Assembly: GCA_965208125.1 (NCBI GenBank)
Contig: OZ242320.1
Span: forward strand, 2,592,001 to 2,656,000
DNA: 64,000 bases
Direction: 5' to 3'
From: Candidatus Latescibacterota bacterium
Lineage (GTDB): Bacteria > Latescibacterota > UBA2968
The position numbers and the translations under genes are program-made. The stretch's first letter is position 1. Every line of letters begins with the position of its first letter. Shown in pieces: positions 19,640-28,565 of this stretch. The notes under the pieces were generated by a model that saw nothing but the letters and a program-made list of their open reading frames with translations, was not told the origin of the DNA and ran no database searches.

Positions 19640-19715
19640 GACCCCGTCGTTCAGTGGCCTAGGACACCAGACTCTCACTCTGGAGACGGGGGTTCGACTC
19701 CCCTCGGGGTCACCA
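19640..19715 (+). tRNA. tRNA-Glu (CTC)
   Basis: GACCCCG/CGGGGTC acceptor stem, CCAGA-CT-CTC-AC-TCTGG anticodon arm, GGTTCGACTCC, CCA end. Confidence 0.96.
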
Positions 19716-19741: not shown

Positions 19742-19777
19742 AAAAAGGTCGTGGGGAATAAACCCTCACGACCTTTT
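19742..19777. terminator. Bidirectional terminator between tRNA-Glu and the convergent island operon
   Basis: aaaaggtcgtgggg...cctcacgacctttt. Confidence 0.8.
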
Positions 19778-19803: not shown

Positions 19804-20349
19804 TCAAATAAGATCCTGGAAAGATGCAAATTGCATGACAAATCGATTCTGCGCCAGAGAGCATTTGATTGCGTCTGCTTGTGATACAGTGAGTATGCTT
19901 TCGTGTATGGCTTTGAGCAAAATACCTGGTGTATTCAACAAATAGCCCTTTCCCAATTCATACTGAATTTCTCTGGAAATTAATTTATTTTTTTCCTCAT
20001 CACAGGCCATTATCCATCGCCGACAAGTCGCAATGGCCAAACACGCAGCCTCCCCATCTCCCATTTGCTGTCTGTATCGCGTATAAGAAAGCAATTCGTT
20101 TTGATCCGCTATCTCAGTCTTTCTAAGCCATCCTTCCCCCAATGCTTGATCCAAAACGAGCCGCTGTGCTGGATATGTAATTTCCGCATAAACTTCTTCG
20201 GGAATATAAAAAGCGTATATTTGCAGTTTTTGGAGAATGTCCAAGCGATCAATTTTGATAAAGTTGATCAGAATATTTGCATCTGTAATCACACATGATT
20301 GACCATCTGTTCTCTTCTGCACGAGATCACTCCGGGAGATAGACCCCAT
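19804..20349 (-). CDS. PIN-domain protein (DUF3368-like putative ribonuclease toxin)
   Basis: VITDANILINF, PEEVYAE, MGDGEAACLAIA, MACDE; overlaps the upstream gene end by 23 bp. Confidence 0.82.
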   Translation of the reverse strand: MGSISRSDLVQKRTDGQSCVITDANILINFIKIDRLDILQKLQIYAFYIPEEVYAEITYPAQRLVLDQALGEGWLRKTEIADQNELLSYTRYRQQMGDGEAACLAIATCRRWIMACDEEKNKLISREIQYELGKGYLLNTPGILLKAIHESILTVSQADAIKCSLAQNRFVMQFASFQDLI

Positions 20350-21643
20350 GTTCAATATCGTCTTCAAATCCCATGCAGGATAGTATCTCGTCTATGACAT
20401 CATCAAATCCCACTTGTTTTGCGAGATTGACCAATTTTCTGTACGTGATTACGTGACGGCGATAGGCTTCGATGGCTAGACCCACGAAATTGAGATCAAA
20501 ATTGCTGACAGAGTGTTCTCGTCCTTTTTTTTCTTTTGGTTCTTCTCGCCCTTCTTCAATTTTTAGGTATTGTGCAACCTGTTTTGCTTCTTCTTTTTGC
20601 TCAAAGAGTTTATGAAATGCGTCTTCGGAAAGAACCTTGGTGTTTCTCAATCTGTACAAGGCGGCTTCAAAGCTGGTTCCAAAGTACGTATAGAGTTTGA
20701 CCACATCGTAAAGCGTGATGATTTGTGAGGATGCCAGGCGGCGGTGATGCCCCACAATAGGATCAGGGCCAGGTTGCTCGGTATAGGCCAACAGCCTTTC
20801 TCTGCTGGACGCACCTTTGCCGATATTTTTTAGAAATTGACTCACGCCTTCTTCTGGCATGAGAAACGCCGCTGCAAAAGCATTCGCACGCACTTCGAAT
20901 AAATCGCGGTCGTTTGAGATTTTGCTGATAGTAATGCCTTTATCCCGGTCAAGCAATATGTGACTGTATTCATGGGCGATGGTAAATGCGACTCGAGCTT
21001 TCGCCCTATCAAACTGTGCTTCGTTGATGACAATACACAACTGCGTCTCTGCATTAGCTATAAAAATACCGGAGATATGATCCTCCAAATTTTTCTTTAT
21101 AACTGGTATGCCTTGAGATTCCACCAACTCTTCCATGTCGCGGATAGGATCAATCCCCAACTCAAGACGACTGCGTTCCGCCTCTGCTGCATGTTCGCCC
21201 ATTTGAATGGCTTCCCAAACATTTTTGGGTTCACCATAAGCATATACAGGCGGTAGGTTCCGTTCCTGATCCAGATCCAAAAGTTTTTTTAAATTTCCAT
21301 ATTCTCTAAGGAGTTCGATCGCGTCCCTCAAAGAATTATAGGAGATGTGATTTTGCACGAGGTCTGGATGAGCGCGAAATAGAACGGCCAGTGCGTCTTT
21401 CTCGACAGCCCTTTCTTCTAAGAAACTGGCCATATCTCTCCCATAAAGACGCGATAGATGCATGAGTTCAATTGAACTGACCGTCCGTTGACCAGACTCG
21501 ATCTGAGAAATTGCAACACGGGTAAGCGCAACGTGACTTGCCTGAGCGTTGTGTGCAAGCAAGTCGGCAACCTGCTGTTGGGTCAATCCGATTGCTTCAC
21601 GCGCACTTTTTAATCGTTGTCCCAATTCTCTTTGCGTCAGCAT
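20327..21643 (-). CDS. XRE-family HTH fused to ImmA/IrrE (COG2856) metallopeptidase
   Basis: LGQRLKSARE..GLTQQQVA...ISQIESGQR HTH; FTIAHEYSH (HExxH); EVRANAFAAAFLMP. Confidence 0.92.
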   Translation of the reverse strand: MLTQRELGQRLKSAREAIGLTQQQVADLLAHNAQASHVALTRVAISQIESGQRTVSSIELMHLSRLYGRDMASFLEERAVEKDALAVLFRAHPDLVQNHISYNSLRDAIELLREYGNLKKLLDLDQERNLPPVYAYGEPKNVWEAIQMGEHAAEAERSRLELGIDPIRDMEELVESQGIPVIKKNLEDHISGIFIANAETQLCIVINEAQFDRAKARVAFTIAHEYSHILLDRDKGITISKISNDRDLFEVRANAFAAAFLMPEEGVSQFLKNIGKGASSRERLLAYTEQPGPDPIVGHHRRLASSQIITLYDVVKLYTYFGTSFEAALYRLRNTKVLSEDAFHKLFEQKEEAKQVAQYLKIEEGREEPKEKKGREHSVSNFDLNFVGLAIEAYRRHVITYRKLVNLAKQVGFDDVIDEILSCMGFEDDIEHGVYLPE

Positions 21644-21705
21644 TGCATTATCTCCTGCATATAAGTTTGAAAATAAGCCTCATCAATTTATTACTCATCA
21701 GTGAT

Positions 21706-23208
21706 TTACATATAAAATTTATATTTTGGCTGCACGATGCCCCCGTCCGGAATATGTTTCATGATATCCCCGATCTTTGATGAGAAAGAGCGCGTGATGG
21801 GCATTCCATCAGCAAACGAACAGTTGTTTACATTCATCTTCGTAAGCACCAGGATTTCCCGGAGAAGGTCCTTTGGGGCACTCCCTCCGTGATGCTCAAC
21901 GATTTGCCAAGGTTCAGGCACATAGGAGCTTGGATAAGTCTCCAAATAGGGAATAAAACCCATAGTAAATAAAAAATGCTGATCTTCCTCAATAGAGAAA
22001 TAAGTGCCACGGAGAGGAGGATATTTGCCTTCCCTGAACAGACGCACGCCTGTCTGCCTCAAGGCTACAAAATCGCTTTCGCATCCGCGGAATACTTCAT
22101 CAATGCCTTCATAGAACCCGTCAAGTTCGTTGTATTCTCTGTGTTCTGGACCCCAAAACTCGGATGATTTGTGAATCACGACGCGACGAGGTGGGATGCC
22201 AGTCACTTTTACGTATTCGTTCAGCGTATTCCGGATGAGTTTACGAGCAGCATCTTTTGTAAGATGTGGTGCGCGTCCGCGTTTTTCTGAATCCCATTCA
22301 AAAGGGTCGCCTCTCAGTACTAGGCCTTGACCCAAATGGTCGAAGGCTTGAGAGACACTTGATCGGATGGTCAACTTGTCGCTTAGATCCTGTGCAATAT
22401 AGAAGTTGACGCCCACAAAACATACGTCTTTTTCCAGTGCTGTCGGCCGCCAGGGTATTCCGTCAGCCTTGTAATATTGCGCTGTACAGAAATTCCACGC
22501 GCGGGTTGCCCTTTCTTGGAGAGCACCTTTTCCAACTACGGTTCGGCGCTGCAGAAGTTGAATAGGGATACCCCACCTCATTGTTCGCGCCTTGATTGCA
22601 CGGCGAAAATTGAGATGAAAGTTGCCAGAAACCCTTATGCTATGAGCCTCTTCCACAATTTCCGAAGTAAGTGCGAGGACAATGATGTCTGGAGAAGGAG
22701 AGGTGGTGGCCAGACTCTCAACTTGACTGTCGAAAAATTCGACCAATTTCCAGATACGCTCTTGCTTGTCTTCTATGGACAGAACAGCGGCAAGTTCTCT
22801 AGGTTGGACAATCCTTTCCCAGCGTTCGTTCATTTGGAAGCAGGATTGGAATGTAGAGTTCCTATTAAATCCCACAAAATCCCTATTTAAAATTTTCTCC
22901 AGTCTGGTCCGTTGTTCGTCTTGGAATACATCCTCACCAAACAATTCTCCTGGAACTGTCTCGAGTTGGTGGGTTTTTTTGACGTTTTCGCTTTCGATGG
23001 TTGAACCACATTCCTCAATCCATTCCTTTGCGCCAGAAATAGTTTCTCGCGTACCTACAAATCCGAGCTTGATCTCGGAACAATGAAGGCCAGATACGTT
23101 GATACCAAACGGCCCGAATTCTGCCAACCCTGTCTTGGCATCTTCATATTCGAAATATTTGTTGAACTGAAGCTTAGGTTCTTCCAGATATTCAATATTA
23201 ATATTCAT
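21706..23208 (-). CDS. Short prokaryotic Argonaute (MID-PIWI, catalytically inactive), 500 aa
   Basis: YLEEPKLQF..GL..FGP N-terminus, NFRRAIKA, WNFCTAQYYKA.GIPW, VVIHKSS, YPPLRGT, LTKMNVN, C-terminal YKFYM; GVNF and HKS replace catalytic Asp positions. Confidence 0.92.
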   Translation of the reverse strand: MNINIEYLEEPKLQFNKYFEYEDAKTGLAEFGPFGINVSGLHCSEIKLGFVGTRETISGAKEWIEECGSTIESENVKKTHQLETVPGELFGEDVFQDEQRTRLEKILNRDFVGFNRNSTFQSCFQMNERWERIVQPRELAAVLSIEDKQERIWKLVEFFDSQVESLATTSPSPDIIVLALTSEIVEEAHSIRVSGNFHLNFRRAIKARTMRWGIPIQLLQRRTVVGKGALQERATRAWNFCTAQYYKADGIPWRPTALEKDVCFVGVNFYIAQDLSDKLTIRSSVSQAFDHLGQGLVLRGDPFEWDSEKRGRAPHLTKDAARKLIRNTLNEYVKVTGIPPRRVVIHKSSEFWGPEHREYNELDGFYEGIDEVFRGCESDFVALRQTGVRLFREGKYPPLRGTYFSIEEDQHFLFTMGFIPYLETYPSSYVPEPWQIVEHHGGSAPKDLLREILVLTKMNVNNCSFADGMPITRSFSSKIGDIMKHIPDGGIVQPKYKFYM

Positions 23209-24562
23209 CGTTTTCCTCGGGAGTTCTAAATAAGTCATCCAAGAGATGCATCTGTCCAGTATCCTCAGTCTCCTCGTAGATGGCAAGGTCGTGGGAGATG
23301 GCGAAGTTGGCAATGAATGACAATGGTTCTTTTTCAATGGTCATTGCGGTTTTGAAGTCCAGCTTTATGTCAATAGCCGGCTTGCTTTCTGATAAAATAT
23401 CCGCCCAAAATAAGACGTGATTCAACACTTGGAGATTTCTTTCTCTTGCTTTTATTCTTGTTGTATAGGGGCCGACCTTTTCGTTGTCATATGGTACTTT
23501 ACCGTCTTCAGTGAAGAAATACTTCGGAATAATTTGAAGGTACCACGATTGGCTGATGTACTTGAAGGACAGATTGACGGCAAGATGTCTCCAGAAACTG
23601 TCCGAGCCGTATTTGAAAAATTTCGCAACGGTTCGCGCTGGAGCCGCTCTACCGGTCCTCACATTAAGCCAGTCTTGCTTGAATTCCAAACCTGTTTCAT
23701 CCTGCCGGGGAAAATAGTTGCGCCTGAAATTCGAGTTGTATCTGAGGCCGCATCTTCTTAAATGGATGCCCAGAAGTTGATTTAAAAGAAAAACATAATC
23801 TTTGCGGCGCAGATCATCAGTAGTCCAATGCTCGGCAGGCATATTAGCAATATCACTTATGTTGCAGAAATTCCGCAAGGTGCATCGGTGGTTGTGCAGG
23901 TCGGAGAAAGTATATAACCGGTCTTCAAAGATACAAAATGGAGGTCTAAAACCTTCGATTTCGTTTCTCAGGTCTTTATAATTCTTATAATCCGTGGGCG
24001 CATGGGTGATAATTTTGGGCGTGCGTTTGACTAGTAGGAGGTTGGAAAATAGCCTTTCTTTTTGTTCCATTGATATGCGAGGAGGACTTACCCCGGCAAT
24101 CCCGCATATCTGCTTATAGCAATTGGGAGTAAAGATATCAGACGCTTTGTCAAAGGTGATGTGGAAGGGGGCTTGGAAGCTTGATGGAGTGCTCTGAAGG
24201 TAAGACTTTATGTCTTTCCAATACAGTCTGTCATCTTGGGGATTATAGACAATGAACAGCACTGGAAACGTGGCATTATACCAATATTCAAGATCCTTTT
24301 TTTTAACAGGCGTAACGAAGTTGGTCTCGGAAGATTGCTGAACGTAGCTCTCACCCGACTTGGCTTGTACCTTGATTATCCCTCCATTAGTCTCAAAGCC
24401 TTTACCATCGGATTTGGGAAGGACAACTTCTATTTCACCGTCAATGCCGAAGTCGTCCTTTGAGATTTCCCGAAATATGCATTTCATTTCGTTGACAACT
24501 TCACTGATACGGTTAAGCCCCTTCCACTCCTGAAATTTTGATGGCAGAACAGTTTTGGACAT
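23198..24562 (-). CDS. DUF4365 PD-(D/E)xK-type nuclease-APAZ fusion (DREN-APAZ-like effector)
   Basis: DDFGIDGEIE...KVQAKS nuclease motif, LEYW..PV.FIVY; ERLFSNLL APAZ start, WRHLA...YLQIIPKYFFTEDG...ERN..V; 11-bp overlap with the pAgo start. Confidence 0.88.
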   Translation of the reverse strand: MSKTVLPSKFQEWKGLNRISEVVNEMKCIFREISKDDFGIDGEIEVVLPKSDGKGFETNGGIIKVQAKSGESYVQQSSETNFVTPVKKKDLEYWYNATFPVLFIVYNPQDDRLYWKDIKSYLQSTPSSFQAPFHITFDKASDIFTPNCYKQICGIAGVSPPRISMEQKERLFSNLLLVKRTPKIITHAPTDYKNYKDLRNEIEGFRPPFCIFEDRLYTFSDLHNHRCTLRNFCNISDIANMPAEHWTTDDLRRKDYVFLLNQLLGIHLRRCGLRYNSNFRRNYFPRQDETGLEFKQDWLNVRTGRAAPARTVAKFFKYGSDSFWRHLAVNLSFKYISQSWYLQIIPKYFFTEDGKVPYDNEKVGPYTTRIKARERNLQVLNHVLFWADILSESKPAIDIKLDFKTAMTIEKEPLSFIANFAISHDLAIYEETEDTGQMHLLDDLFRTPEENDEY

Positions 24563-24677
24563 GCTGAATTTCCTCTTAAGATATAAACCTGTCAATCATT
24601 TCTGATAAACAGCAATATTTTGACTAAATTGAGGCTTTAATAATGTATCTGATCCTTTCATATATGTCAATATTAAA

Positions 24678-24768
24678 TTTGTATTTTAATTTTAAATACA
24701 AAAAAATAAAACAATATCTAAAGAGTTTACAATAGAATAGGGAAGTTAAGTTTATTTAACTTCCCTAT
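24678..24768. promoter_or_regulatory. Two inverted repeats in the AT-rich leader of the pAgo operon
   Basis: tttgtattt-N7-aaatacaaa (24678-24702); atagggaagttaa-N6-ttaacttccctat (24737-24768). Confidence 0.6.
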
Positions 24769-24870: not shown

Positions 24871-25065
24871 TTACTCAGTCTCATCAGCATCAATAAGTAT
24901 CTGTTCATACAAATCAGCAGAGACGCGAAAGTCGCAGGCCAATAATCCATCTATCAACGGCCTAATGGTTGGCAATAGACCTTTGCGCTTCGCCGATAAC
25001 AGAACCCCTAATGTGCCAATGACAGGCAACCTCAACCAGTGAGCCAATCTACGTCCATAGCTCAT
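24871..25065 (-). pseudogene. DUF3368/PIN toxin remnant (N-terminal PIN core missing)
   Basis: MSY directly followed by GRRLA..LRLPVIGTLGVLLSAKRKGLL...FRVS..LYEQIL, the family C-terminus. Confidence 0.75.
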
Positions 25066-25315
25066 CAGCCTGAAGTCGTTCGCGTTTCCATTCCTCCGCA
25101 TTGAGATCAAAGAAAGCAATGCCCAATTGAGATGCATGCTGAATAAATTCCCAGCGTGACATGTCCAATAATTGAGCCGCTTTGCCACTGGATATGCTGC
25201 CTCGGCGATATAGCTCCAGAACAATCATTTCACGAGCCGTTTCTTGAATAGGCTGATTAAGTTCCTGTAATAGAACTGCCAGATCAGCATCAAGAGTTAC
25301 TGTGACGAGTGACAC
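25049..25315 (-). CDS. UPF0175-family antitoxin
   Basis: LELYRRGSISSGKAAQLLDMSRWEFI; GTG start after AGGAG. Confidence 0.85.
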   Translation of the reverse strand: MSLVTVTLDADLAVLLQELNQPIQETAREMIVLELYRRGSISSGKAAQLLDMSRWEFIQHASQLGIAFFDLNAEEWKRERLQADELWT

Positions 25316-26756: not shown

Positions 26757-27359
26757 ATGTCATCTATAAAGATGCCAAAATTTAAAGAACGGAAAGCTGC
26801 TCAAGTTACACGTTTATTCATACAGTGCAATGGTGACAAAAGTTTCAGTACACGCAAACTGCTTAAGTTGATCTATCTTGTTGACAGAAAAGCATTGGAG
26901 CTATGGGGGTTTCCAGTAACCTATGATACGCCCAAAAATCTTCCGTATGAGGGCCTCATGCCTGGCCACACGTATGATCTTATCGATCCTCCAAAAAAGA
27001 AAAGAAATGCCCTGTTTATGTCTGGATCTAGCTACTGGTATCATTATTTTTGCAGGTCCAATGAGGGTCATTATACCATACCAACTGAACTAAATCCAGG
27101 AACAGCAGATCTATCTCGTGCTGAGATTGAGTTGGCCGGGAATATCTTTGATCAATTTGGATATAAGACCGATGAACAATTGGATGATTATTGCCGCACT
27201 TTGCCCGAATCAGGCCATTCAGAAACGCCACACGGGGACATCGATTGGAAGGTTCTTCTTCAGGCTGTTGGTTGGGCAGGTAAGGATTTGGCAGAAATAA
27301 AGAAAGATCTTGAATTTCAGGCAAAATTTGAGGGTCTTATTACGGCAGGAGAAATATGA
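26757..27359 (+). CDS. Panacea (DUF4065/SocA) domain antitoxin
   Basis: FKERKAAQV...KLLKLIYLVDR.AL..WG.PVTYD; LSRAEIE...IFDQFG. Confidence 0.82.
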   Translation: MSSIKMPKFKERKAAQVTRLFIQCNGDKSFSTRKLLKLIYLVDRKALELWGFPVTYDTPKNLPYEGLMPGHTYDLIDPPKKKRNALFMSGSSYWYHYFCRSNEGHYTIPTELNPGTADLSRAEIELAGNIFDQFGYKTDEQLDDYCRTLPESGHSETPHGDIDWKVLLQAVGWAGKDLAEIKKDLEFQAKFEGLITAGEI

Positions 27360-27748
27360 GCTTAGCGGGTACGTGTGTCGTTCATCCCGATTTTGGAGGT
27401 GAGCATCTATGTATATTCGTGACAGACTATGCAAATTATAGAGATAGCGAGATAGAAGCTGTCATTGTAAACATCACATCCTGGCATCAGAGAAAGGACC
27501 AGACGCTTATTCTTATGCCAGGAGATCACGATTTTATAACCAGAAAATCAGTTGTTGCCTATCGTTCGGCTTGTCTGCTTAAAGAATGGCAGGTCAACCG
27601 TGTTTTATCGTTTGGAACAGAACAGCCCCCGGCATCCAGAAACTTATTGCTTAAAATTGGTAATGGTCTTCTTAGATCTCTCTTTACCCCAGAGGATGTA
27701 AAAGATTTTTATCTTCAATATTCGCGGGATAATAATGGACCTGTATAG
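27356..27748 (+). CDS. Putative toxin partner of Panacea (MazF/PemK-like fold suspected)
   Basis: ATGA overlap with the antitoxin; HLCIFVT...VIVNITS...DQTLIL.PGDHDFITRKSVVAY. Confidence 0.65.
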   Translation: MSLAGTCVVHPDFGGEHLCIFVTDYANYRDSEIEAVIVNITSWHQRKDQTLILMPGDHDFITRKSVVAYRSACLLKEWQVNRVLSFGTEQPPASRNLLLKIGNGLLRSLFTPEDVKDFYLQYSRDNNGPV

Positions 27749-28239: not shown

Positions 28240-28436
28240 GAAAGCCATCAGCCAAAACCATCACGCACAGCGCGTGAGTCCGTTTCGCAGCGGACATCCG
28301 TTGTCCATCCAAACTCGAAAGGCCACCTTCTTTTGTTTTTGCATACAAACGATTTGCGCTGTGCAAGCCCCCCGCAGGGGCGCCCTTTTTTTGCTTCATT
28401 TTTTTGGGCGCGCAAAAAAATGAAGTCGCCGAAGGC
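28240..28436. repeat. Structured non-coding element at the right end of island 2
   Basis: Hairpins cttcatttttttg-ggcgcg-caaaaaaatgaag (28394-28425), gccgaaggc, cccc-gca-gggg. Confidence 0.5.
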
Positions 28437-28565
28437 AAAAAAGAAAAATATTAAAAAAACTCTATACGTCGTTATACCACAACAAATGAATTATCCACAC
28501 CCTTCATATATTTAGCGCCTGAAAATAATACGCTATGTATATGTTTTATGCAATAGGGCTATGGA

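Follow-up and report, generated by a model that had tools for sequence, protein, structure and literature searches.

The 64,000-nucleotide (nt) stretch of DNA analysed in full here (the window), taken from contig OZ242320.1 of a Candidatus Latescibacterota bacterium, contains between positions 19804 and 24562 four genes, all called as open reading frames (ORFs) on the minus strand and designated A (a DREN(DUF4365)-APAZ protein), B (a short prokaryotic Argonaute, pAgo), C (an XRE helix-turn-helix (HTH) protein joined to an M78 peptidase) and D (a PIN-like protein). The reading put forward, to which a probability of about 0.55 is given, is that this locus is a mosaic within a defence hotspot, in which A and B, together a SPARDA system, lie between the C-D pair and a hairpin-box-promoter module named P_C after gene C, probably with one promoter shared by all four genes, and that it is not a purpose-built four-gene system. 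What appears to be new is a conserved frame, made up of a promoter and an HTH-peptidase gene, in which defence cassettes can replace one another, short pAgo systems being two of them. Such systems are regarded as complete with two genes, and the control of their expression is poorly understood. A single slot, reaching from a conserved promoter to a conserved HTH-peptidase gene and occupied in different genomes by two unrelated short pAgo systems, two cyclic oligonucleotide-based antiphage signalling systems (CBASS) and one restriction-modification (R-M) system, thus provides a specific instance, open to experiment, in which a resident switch of the toxin-antitoxin (TA) or regulator type may govern defence cargo. 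All coordinates are window positions, and G000 denotes the genome of the window.

The mosaic becomes apparent when the locus is compared with its counterparts in congeners. The fixed edge of the hotspot is a tRNA-Glu(CTC) gene (19640-19715, plus strand, ARAGORN), which follows a hairpin located 3' of D and whose flank is syntenic, with 90-97% nt identity, in G008, G009, G015, G002, G004, G005 and G011. In G000, SPARDA lies upstream of C and D downstream. In G009, in which C is 96% identical at the amino acid (aa) level, D is deleted and the space upstream of C is taken by three CBASS-sized genes (426, 147 and 166 aa) together with the Mod and Res genes of a type III R-M system. In G008 (C 82%), a SMEK-APAZ gene and a short pAgo distinct from B (33% identity) are found upstream of C with a 72-nt spacer, and in G015 (C 84%) a CBASS cyclase and two small genes take this place; both of these genomes carry a Panacea antitoxin gene and a 121-aa gene downstream of C. 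The sequence of G009 matches the window at 92-94% nt up to position 21655 and again at 90-91% nt from position 24720, with other genes between these points, and G008 and G015 have the same layout, with a homologous flank at either end of the cassette. In all three the homology breaks 12-14 nt upstream of the ATG of C. The SPARDA cassette delimited in this way (21657-24641, minus strand), which comprises the 5' untranslated region, A, B and most of the spacer between B and C, has no counterpart in G009, G008 or G015.

Sequencing reads point in the same direction. In run X3, which of the runs covers the stretch best, the word depth of SPARDA is 4.3 with 0 mismatches, whereas C reaches a depth of 50-100, contributed by strains whose contigs diverge from the window at 21656/21657; the points at which contigs of other strains leave the window sequence are 21644 and 21656/21657, and run X2 contains C-D only, with D sometimes skipped. 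Among the RNA-library contigs, those of X1 are without 24209-24700 and those of X2 without any SPARDA, and these gaps were not used for inference. SPARDA is read as a swapped-in unit because the flanks are homologous and the cassette differs in G009, G008 and G015, because of the contrast in depth in X3, and because, as the survey below shows, 60 relatives are without a close homologue of B and the closest pAgo loci listed carry the titles of other phyla; horizontal acquisition is the best explanation for its presence. On these sequence comparisons, C is the constant element, and both the cassette upstream of it (here SPARDA) and the module downstream (here D) are interchangeable with others; the cargo found at the tRNA-Glu site comprises SPARDA, another short pAgo system, CBASS, type III R-M and type II R-M. 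Variable defence cargo between conserved flanks beside a tRNA gene is what is known from defence hotspots and islands, with the difference that the arms here would be a promoter and the gene of its putative regulator, which would place the cargo within a transcription unit.

The arm at the 5' end of the cassette is P_C, a module of ~150 nt consisting of a hairpin (GGGAGG...CCTCCC), a TTGTAAA box and, 55-67 nt later, ATAT-TTGACA, 17 nt and TAC(A/C)TT. In the window, the head of the module spans 24721-24765 (minus strand), with the hairpin GGGAAGTTAA/TTAACTTCCC at 24740-24765 and the conserved TTGTAAA box at 24726-24732, and the core promoter, TTGACA, 17 nt and TACATT (10/12 in the promoter scan), lies at 24642-24670 (minus strand). 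This core aligns with its counterparts in G008, G009, G010, G015, G016 and G018, and the alignment of the 7 loci (A7) has 35 invariant columns over the hairpin, the TTGTAAA box and TTGACA-17-TAC(A/C)TT. The P_C pattern has one match in the window's own genome (control pattern, 0) and 17 matches in 31 genomes of the family, 7 of which are by eye the P_C module, the rest being located in unrelated conserved loci. The genomes with these 7 modules are precisely the 7 in which a C-type gene of 74-100% identity is present. In G010, G016 and G018, C-D is embedded in other flanks (C 74-76%, D 74-77%); a CBASS operon (cyclase, a 144-aa gene and patatin) lies directly upstream of C-D in G010, and in G016 and G018 the module is found 87 nt and 52 nt upstream of the C start, respectively, with nothing between. 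P_C, which stands directly before C in these last two genomes, is most simply taken to be the promoter of C. A co-directional cassette of 2.5-7.5 kb separates module and C in G000, G008, G015, G010 and G009, and the simplest reading of these sequences is that the cassettes fill the space between the transcription start of P_C and the ribosome-binding site of C. Two metagenome loci, L135 and L137, also have, by eye, TTGACA-17-TACATT at ~75 nt before C. The homology of the P_C modules is based on the 7-way alignment and the pattern scan, and not on pairwise alignments.

Several candidate operators of C were considered and discarded. The best 10-mer over 13 cassette heads and C leaders is present in 8/13, with a shuffle maximum of 6 (30 shuffles), and it turned out to be the TTGTAAA box, which has no evident palindrome, so that it was rejected as a palindromic operator. 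A similarity between the sequences upstream of C in the window and in G018 (3/300 shuffles) consists of the conserved last codons of pAgo, as does a similarity between the sequences upstream of A and upstream of C in the window (3/300); the spacer alone is matched by 935/1000 shuffles, and no operator is shared between these regions.

Between the two genes at which the cassette joins the resident pair, there is a spacer of 62 nt (21644-21705, minus strand), reaching from the pAgo stop to the C start and containing the 3' junction of the SPARDA cassette. No terminator-like or promoter-like site was found by the scan in this spacer and the 3' part of B, and the spacer folds no better than its shuffles (z +1.15). 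The only terminator is the GC-rich hairpin after D (19743-19777; 14 pairs, 7 GC in the terminator scan), which has T/A runs on both sides. Since the spacer is free of promoter and terminator and P_C is homologous to the promoter directly before C in two congeners, the window is read as containing one operon, and A-B-C-D are likely to form one transcript that starts at P_C and ends at this hairpin. The first-pass annotation of this DNA, made from the letters alone, had proposed such a four-gene expression unit, and the same two lines of evidence make it likely; its gene identities, the shared direction, the 62-nt spacer and the single terminator are borne out by the ORF calls, the Pfam and PADLOC matches and the terminator scan. 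Among the RNA-library sequences there is a contig of 3496 nt, ~92% identical to the window, that spans C, B and A over 20776-24178. This contig shows that the C-B junction is present in a second lineage, and it is a weak hint at most of co-transcription.

A and B have the properties of a canonical SPARDA pair. A (454 aa, 23198-24562, minus strand) matches Pfam DUF4365 (E 2.6e-24) and the PADLOC model Aga_REase-PNTD1-PNTD2 over residues 3-427 (E 9.1e-82), and its residues 166-442 are matched by the SIR2-APAZ and TIR-APAZ models of PADLOC. When aligned to the solved SPARDA chain 9qbq_A, D41, E45 and Q66-x-K68 are conserved; the D41/Q60/K62 triple substitution of NbaSPARDA is reported to be inactive in a paper that calls SPARDA two-component (10.1101/2023.06.08.544223). 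B (500 aa, 21706-23208, minus strand), a short MID-PIWI protein, has no Pfam match at E<=0.01 and is recognised by the PADLOC model pAgo_I (E 5.3e-149). Its nearest solved chain is the SPARHA pAgo 9om4_B (E 2.4e-86), followed by the SPARDA pAgos 9qbp_B, 9qbl_B and 9jsb_A. As a member of the short pAgo class, B is presumably catalytically dead. The 11-nt overlap between A and B given in the first-pass annotation was found as described. The pair thus combines an N-terminal DREN nuclease with a D...E...QxK motif, a fusion to APAZ and an adjacent short MID-PIWI pAgo, and by sequence it is a canonical two-gene SPARDA. The likeness to the known SPARDA (NbaSPARDA, PDB 9jsb; 9qbq/9qbp) extends to the catalytic residues of DUF4365, the APAZ part, the 500-aa MID-PIWI protein and the 11-nt overlap; the differences are that A is only distantly like the solved SPARDA subunits (E 1.6e-19), that B is nearer to the solved SPARHA pAgo and that the pair is located here inside the leader of another operon, behind the promoter of that operon.

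C (438 aa, 20327-21643, minus strand), a putative antitoxin and repressor, combines an XRE HTH domain, an M78 Zn-peptidase of the ImmA/IrrE/CapP kind and a helical C-terminal domain. It matches Pfam Peptidase_M78 (E 1.7e-14) as well as HTH_19, HTH_31 and HTH_3. RmrA, the RosmerTA antitoxin, is the PADLOC model that fits C best (E 6.3e-27), and capP comes second (E 1.1e-16), with a match confined to positions 9-124 of the 242 in its profile. The HExxH motif, H224-E225-x-x-H228, is invariant in 13 aligned sequences, as is E250-x-R-A-N. A structural model of C has a predicted local distance difference test (pLDDT) score of 69 overall and below 50 for residues 264-306, and is all-helical after residue 310. 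In Foldseek searches with this model of moderate confidence, CapP (7t5t) is the top match (E 1.7e-3) and no match reaches E<=0.001; the HTH part resembles R-M controller proteins and ImmR, and the peptidase CapP and IrrE. A search of the PDB with the C sequence returned 0 chains. The GAF-like part of CapP was not matched in C, either by the capP profile or in the model of pLDDT 69. C scores 62.7 bits against the NCBIfam spr1629 antitoxin family, with a cutoff of 335 bits, and the NCBIfam search gave only matches below the cutoffs.

The evolution of C indicates that it does more than accompany D. The dN/dS of C is 0.18 for G008 versus G015, both without D, and 0.12 for G000 versus G009, which shows at the level of codon substitutions that purifying selection on C persists where D is absent. 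C thus appears to be more than the antitoxin of D, with a role independent of D that is most plausibly the repression of its own promoter; binding of C to P_C and control of P_C by C are putative. A short form of C of ~231 aa, in which C residues 1-173 are joined to 355-438 and the peptidase is missing, is present at the same hotspot beside tRNA-Glu in G002 (L197), G004 (L198), G011 (L199) and G005 (L200), which are syntenic with the window at 12-20 kb and 25.5-26.7 kb. In three of these four congeners the short C follows a type II R-M cassette (a C5 methylase and two unknown genes). The C of the window itself has a 27-nt (9-aa) insertion in the HTH turn (21536-21562, minus strand), which homologue alignments show to be absent from 12 other aligned C homologues and from 7 that were compared separately. 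This insertion is kept in the RNA-library contig of the ~92% relative with SPARDA and is absent from the C-D-only contig of run X2.

D (19804-20322, minus strand) is a COG2405/DUF3368 PIN-like protein and putative toxin. It has no Pfam match at E<=0.01 itself, and PF11848/DUF3368 is matched in 64/64 D homologues; the PADLOC model PDC-S70 matches D with an E of 3.2e-9. An AlphaFold2 model of D has a pLDDT of 93.3, and its best Foldseek matches are VapC PIN toxins (probability 1.00, TM 0.43-0.65). D14, N20, E47 and G90-E91 are invariant in 30 D sequences, and D108-E109 in 14 closer ones, so that D unites a PIN fold with conserved acidic residues at the active site. The start codon of D is probably GTG 20322, which lies 4 nt beyond the stop of C, has GGAG ahead of it and gives a protein of 172 aa; this start is preferred because 172 aa is the commonest length among D homologues. 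The 23-nt overlap of C and D given by the first-pass annotation holds only with the alternative ATG 20349, which is less likely.

The pairing of C with D is conserved beyond the hotspot. C is directly upstream in 26/42 metagenomic D loci, 11/42 have no room for it, and 5/42 have room but no C, all five being <=32% identical to D. In every metagenomic D homologue of at least 39% identity with upstream room (14 loci), C is directly upstream. C also directly precedes a D homologue in G010, G016, G018, G044, G031, G011 and G032, and in second loci of G016 and G018. A model of the C-D complex reached a median score of 0.77 over three runs, the best of 3 controls reaching 0.00; the corresponding mark was reached by 58/80 solved complexes and 2/110 mismatched pairs, a calibration that holds approximately here, as the C-D model was built on alignments made for this analysis. 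The contacts of the runs agree to at least 92%, and the partners have a pLDDT of at least 89. The modelled interface joins residues 394-406 and 429-438 of C and its HTH residues 54-61 to residues 84-91 and 108-116 of D, which include the conserved acidic residues. The model supports the notion that C may bind D and mask the PIN active site as an antitoxin would, and the score may partly reflect likeness to solved VapBC-type complexes. With an M78 HExxH peptidase, an N-terminal XRE HTH and a conserved pairing with a small downstream toxin, C-D corresponds to what is described for RosmerTA and for operons of HTH-DUF955 and COG2405 PIN. By sequence, C-D thus resembles a RosmerTA-like TA module, toxicity and neutralisation being putative.

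Whether SPARDA and C-D belong together elsewhere was surveyed from both sides. On the pAgo side, with one genome per species, 183 confirmed relatives were obtained, of which the best 80 loci were kept. In tblastn searches with the four window proteins, B homologues were found in 80/80 of these loci and A-like APAZ proteins in most, and a C or D homologue in 0/80. The first-pass annotation had suggested scoring pAgo homologues for a downstream XRE-COG2856 and PIN pair, and this linkage proved absent, also from the 25 close SPARDA loci that have a full-length pAgo of 52-72% identity and a DREN-APAZ protein. At least 1.5 kb of downstream sequence was available at 24 of these 25 loci, and at least 2.6 kb at 20. 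The closest pAgo loci among the matches listed (72-52% identity) come from genomes, including metagenome-assembled genomes (MAGs), titled Acidobacteriota, Chloroflexota, Planctomycetota and others, and the nearest known relatives of the pAgo are P0001 (93%) and P0002 (85%). With profiles (13 C and 30 D sequences) no D-like ORF was found in the 80 loci, and the C profile gave five weak C-like ORFs, three of which match by the HTH only, one being an M78 protein ~6 kb upstream of pAgo and one belonging to L074, a Bacteroidota MAG. In L074 an unrelated XRE-M78 gene is located 0.45 kb downstream of a DUF4062(TIR-like)-APAZ/pAgo pair, and the whole is nested between hsdS and hsdR of a type I R-M system. 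A close homologue of B is absent from 60 relatives of the window genome, the best being that of G008 (40% over the matched part, 33% full length). From the other side, an A or B homologue was found in 0/42 metagenomic D loci, including 9 with more than 3 kb upstream of C, and the gene upstream of C is on the opposite strand in L135, L137, L148 and L144. A SPARDA-specific four-gene system is not supported by these sequence comparisons, because no linkage of pAgo and C-D is seen elsewhere and because C-D operons are already in print.

A number of observations weigh against the mosaic with a shared promoter and have to be set beside it. Close SPARDA relatives occur in 25 other contexts, all of them without C or D. 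G009, G010 and G015 have, by eye, a second promoter-like element and a shared leader just before C, and in these three genomes the frame therefore does not force co-transcription; the pAgo-bearing G000 and G008 have spacers of 62 and 72 nt, respectively, without such an element. Pairwise local alignments of the sequence upstream of A with that upstream of C are not significant (G018, 23/300 shuffles; G016, 218/300), and in a 10-mer search the box and the -35 flank were recovered in 5/6 cassette heads, 1/30 shuffles being as good. No motif common to P_C and the B-C spacer was found, and no operator of C was identified. The four short-C congeners have no match to a looser P_C pattern (a regular expression, n=4), and the promoter-C frame is thus not universal at the hotspot. 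The library behind the bridging contig can hold DNA in spite of being an RNA library, and a contig over two genes is not the same as one transcript. Finally, the 9-aa HTH insertion might weaken DNA binding by the C of the window.

Much of the survey would also be expected if the genes were adjacent merely because they share an island, with SPARDA and C-D both autonomous, C-D having its own weak promoter within the spacer or close to it, and no coupling between them. The 0/80 pAgo loci with C or D by tblastn, the single locus by profile (L074, 1/80), whose downstream XRE-M78 gene is unrelated and sits within a type I R-M locus, and the 0/42 D loci with A or B all favour this explanation, as does the opposite-strand gene upstream of C in L135, L137, L148 and L144, which indicates that C-D can stand alone. 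The region is moreover a low-G+C island of TA and defence genes (G+C 0.39-0.48 at 20-29 kb versus 0.50-0.58 in the flanks). Such adjacency leaves unaccounted for that the promoter module before SPARDA is the one found directly before C in G016 and G018, that the spacer has no predicted promoter or terminator and that the cassettes are placed exactly between P_C and C in 5/7 genomes, and it is considered possible but on the whole doubtful. A different explanation, judged unlikely, is that C-D, or C with whichever toxin follows it, is an addiction module that stabilises the cargo of the hotspot, the shared promoter being a by-product of recombination between the P_C and C arms. That G008, G009 and G015 match the window to either side of the cassette fits exchange mediated by such arms, the toxin modules after C vary (a DUF3368 PIN; a Panacea antitoxin and a 121-aa gene in G008 and G015), and other TA-like genes crowd the island. 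Purifying selection on C where D is deleted or replaced would, however, be needless for an antitoxin without a toxin, and a short C lacking the peptidase persists in 4 congeners without an adjacent toxin.

The first-pass annotation had suggested as possible a relay in which DNA fragments made by SPARDA activate the C peptidase. Cleavage of C itself or of its HTH would then free the PIN protein and lift repression of the operon, so that the four genes would mount an abortive response of their own in two stages. CapP and IrrE-type peptidases are reported to be activated by single-stranded DNA (ssDNA) and to cleave HTH repressors (10.1101/2022.04.27.489752; 10.64898/2026.05.16.725639), and the peptidase of C is most like these two (capP as a PADLOC match, 7t5t ranked first by Foldseek); the promoter is probably common to the four genes and C is predicted to bind D. 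Such a dedicated relay nevertheless appears very improbable. There is no sign of co-evolution in the surveyed loci, in which SPARDA relatives are without C-D and C-D relatives without pAgo. In the congeners C follows CBASS, type III R-M, another pAgo or nothing, and D is replaced or deleted in three genomes while C persists. The match to capP is partial, the C model is entirely helical towards its C-terminus, and the GAF domain, which is among the ssDNA-binding parts of CapP (10.64898/2026.05.16.725639), was not found in C by the searches described above.

The mosaic reading can be put in terms of a resident unit, composed of the P_C module, C and the COG2405 PIN-like D, in which the SPARDA cassette would occupy the interval from the transcription start of P_C to the ribosome-binding site of C. 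A-B-C-D would be transcribed together from P_C up to the hairpin after D, and SPARDA would, by analogy with characterised systems, work alone, its pAgo recognising invader DNA when loaded with a guide RNA and unleashing the DREN nuclease. C would bind D and mask its PIN active site, as the complex model suggests, and would repress its own promoter, thereby setting the expression of whatever cassette fills the slot. A switch through the C peptidase is conceivable, and any trigger of it is conjectural. The locus further illustrates a possible exchange of cassettes by recombination between two short conserved arms. A more far-reaching version, which is offered as an unlikely speculation, is that P_C and C are a portable regulatory "socket", a promoter and a repressor of the HTH/M78 type encoded at the 3' end, with abortive-infection cassettes (SPARDA, another short pAgo system, CBASS or R-M) plugged in between, such that C holds cargo and PIN protein low until ssDNA or DNA damage activates the peptidase, and the collateral cleavage by SPARDA could feed back and release the PIN protein. 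If true, CapH/CapP would have a counterpart encoded at the 3' end and on the same strand, and short Argonaute systems would for the first time have a regulator tied to them. If C represses P_C, CapH/CapP-like control would be extended to Argonaute systems in a new gene layout, and if C does not, the locus would exemplify why adjacency in an island, and even co-transcription, does not amount to a system.

Parts of this arrangement have precedents. Matelska et al. (2017, PMC5499597) reported operons of HTH-DUF955(COG2856) and COG2405 PIN as "three-component" TA operons, including one in a Geobacillus strain, an ImmA/Rosmer antitoxin node has been paired with PIN-like toxins (PMC10440598), and RosmerTA (RmrA/RmrT) has been described (10.1101/2022.05.11.491447). 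The window resembles these modules in that the HTH-M78 fusion of C is directly before a COG2405/DUF3368 gene and RmrA is the best PADLOC model of C. It differs in its low score against the spr1629 family and in the defence cassette between promoter and antitoxin gene, an arrangement that the available text on those modules does not describe. CapH/CapP are reported to be located upstream of the operon that they control, on the opposite strand, in association with CBASS and other defence operons, and 15 CapH-CapP fusions are mentioned, as is a DISARM locus with a vapC-like gene and a CapH-CapP fusion (10.1101/2022.04.27.489752). C shares with CapH/CapP, and with ImmR/ImmA and DdrO/IrrE, all of them repressor-peptidase regulators that sense damage, the combination of an M78 peptidase and an XRE HTH, here within one protein whose nearest folds are CapP and IrrE. 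As far as the CapH/CapP layout is described there, C departs from it in being at the 3' end, downstream of SPARDA and on the same strand. Of the GAF domain and cysteine-switch loop that mark a CapP-type peptidase, no GAF-like part was matched by the capP profile or in the model of pLDDT 69, and regulation by C is putative. The view that the combination was undescribed thus needs to be narrowed: HTH-DUF955 with COG2405 PIN, and a vapC-like gene with a CapH-CapP fusion at DISARM, are already in print. Among the titles and opening lines of abstracts covered, there was no HTH-peptidase gene tied to short Argonautes and no cassette between such a gene and its promoter; supplementary tables may list some.

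The pAgo survey and the inspection of related genomes also yielded further loci. L074 is a further case of defence genes nested within an operon. The window's own genome has a second Argonaute locus, L124 (G000:C1:902000-921000), with a SIR2-APAZ-pAgo fusion (1059 aa) adjoining a ResIII helicase, a DNA methylase and a pentapeptide-repeat protein. An XRE-M78 paralogue in L124 (37% identical to C) was considered as a linked pAgo partner and set aside; it is followed by an AAA_21 ATPase and not by a PIN gene, and it lies 6.7 kb from the fusion with an opposite-strand gene between, which is read as co-occurrence in an island. In L125 (G015:C1:3547000-3566000), a SIR2-APAZ protein (580 aa), a small ORF and a short pAgo (405 aa) were found, with a weakly D-like ORF of 171 aa (E 2.5e-4, one internal stop) 3.6 kb upstream and no M78 gene within 10 kb.

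Other elements of the window lie upstream of P_C. An ORF of 117 aa with DUF3368 (24871-25224, minus strand) is located just upstream of the P_C hairpin, and G009 has in its place a full ORF of 156 aa and an 86-aa partner, with ~280 nt extra relative to the window; because of this longer counterpart the ORF of the window looks truncated. At 26757-27748 (plus strand) a SocA/Panacea-domain protein (200 aa) overlaps an ORF of 130 aa, likely a TA pair of the PanA/PanT type, and the Panacea and 121-aa pair that replaces D in G008 and G015 is related to it. An element of ~270 nt at 28241-28507 is repeated in the window's own genome (80% identity in L124) and has many copies in G009.

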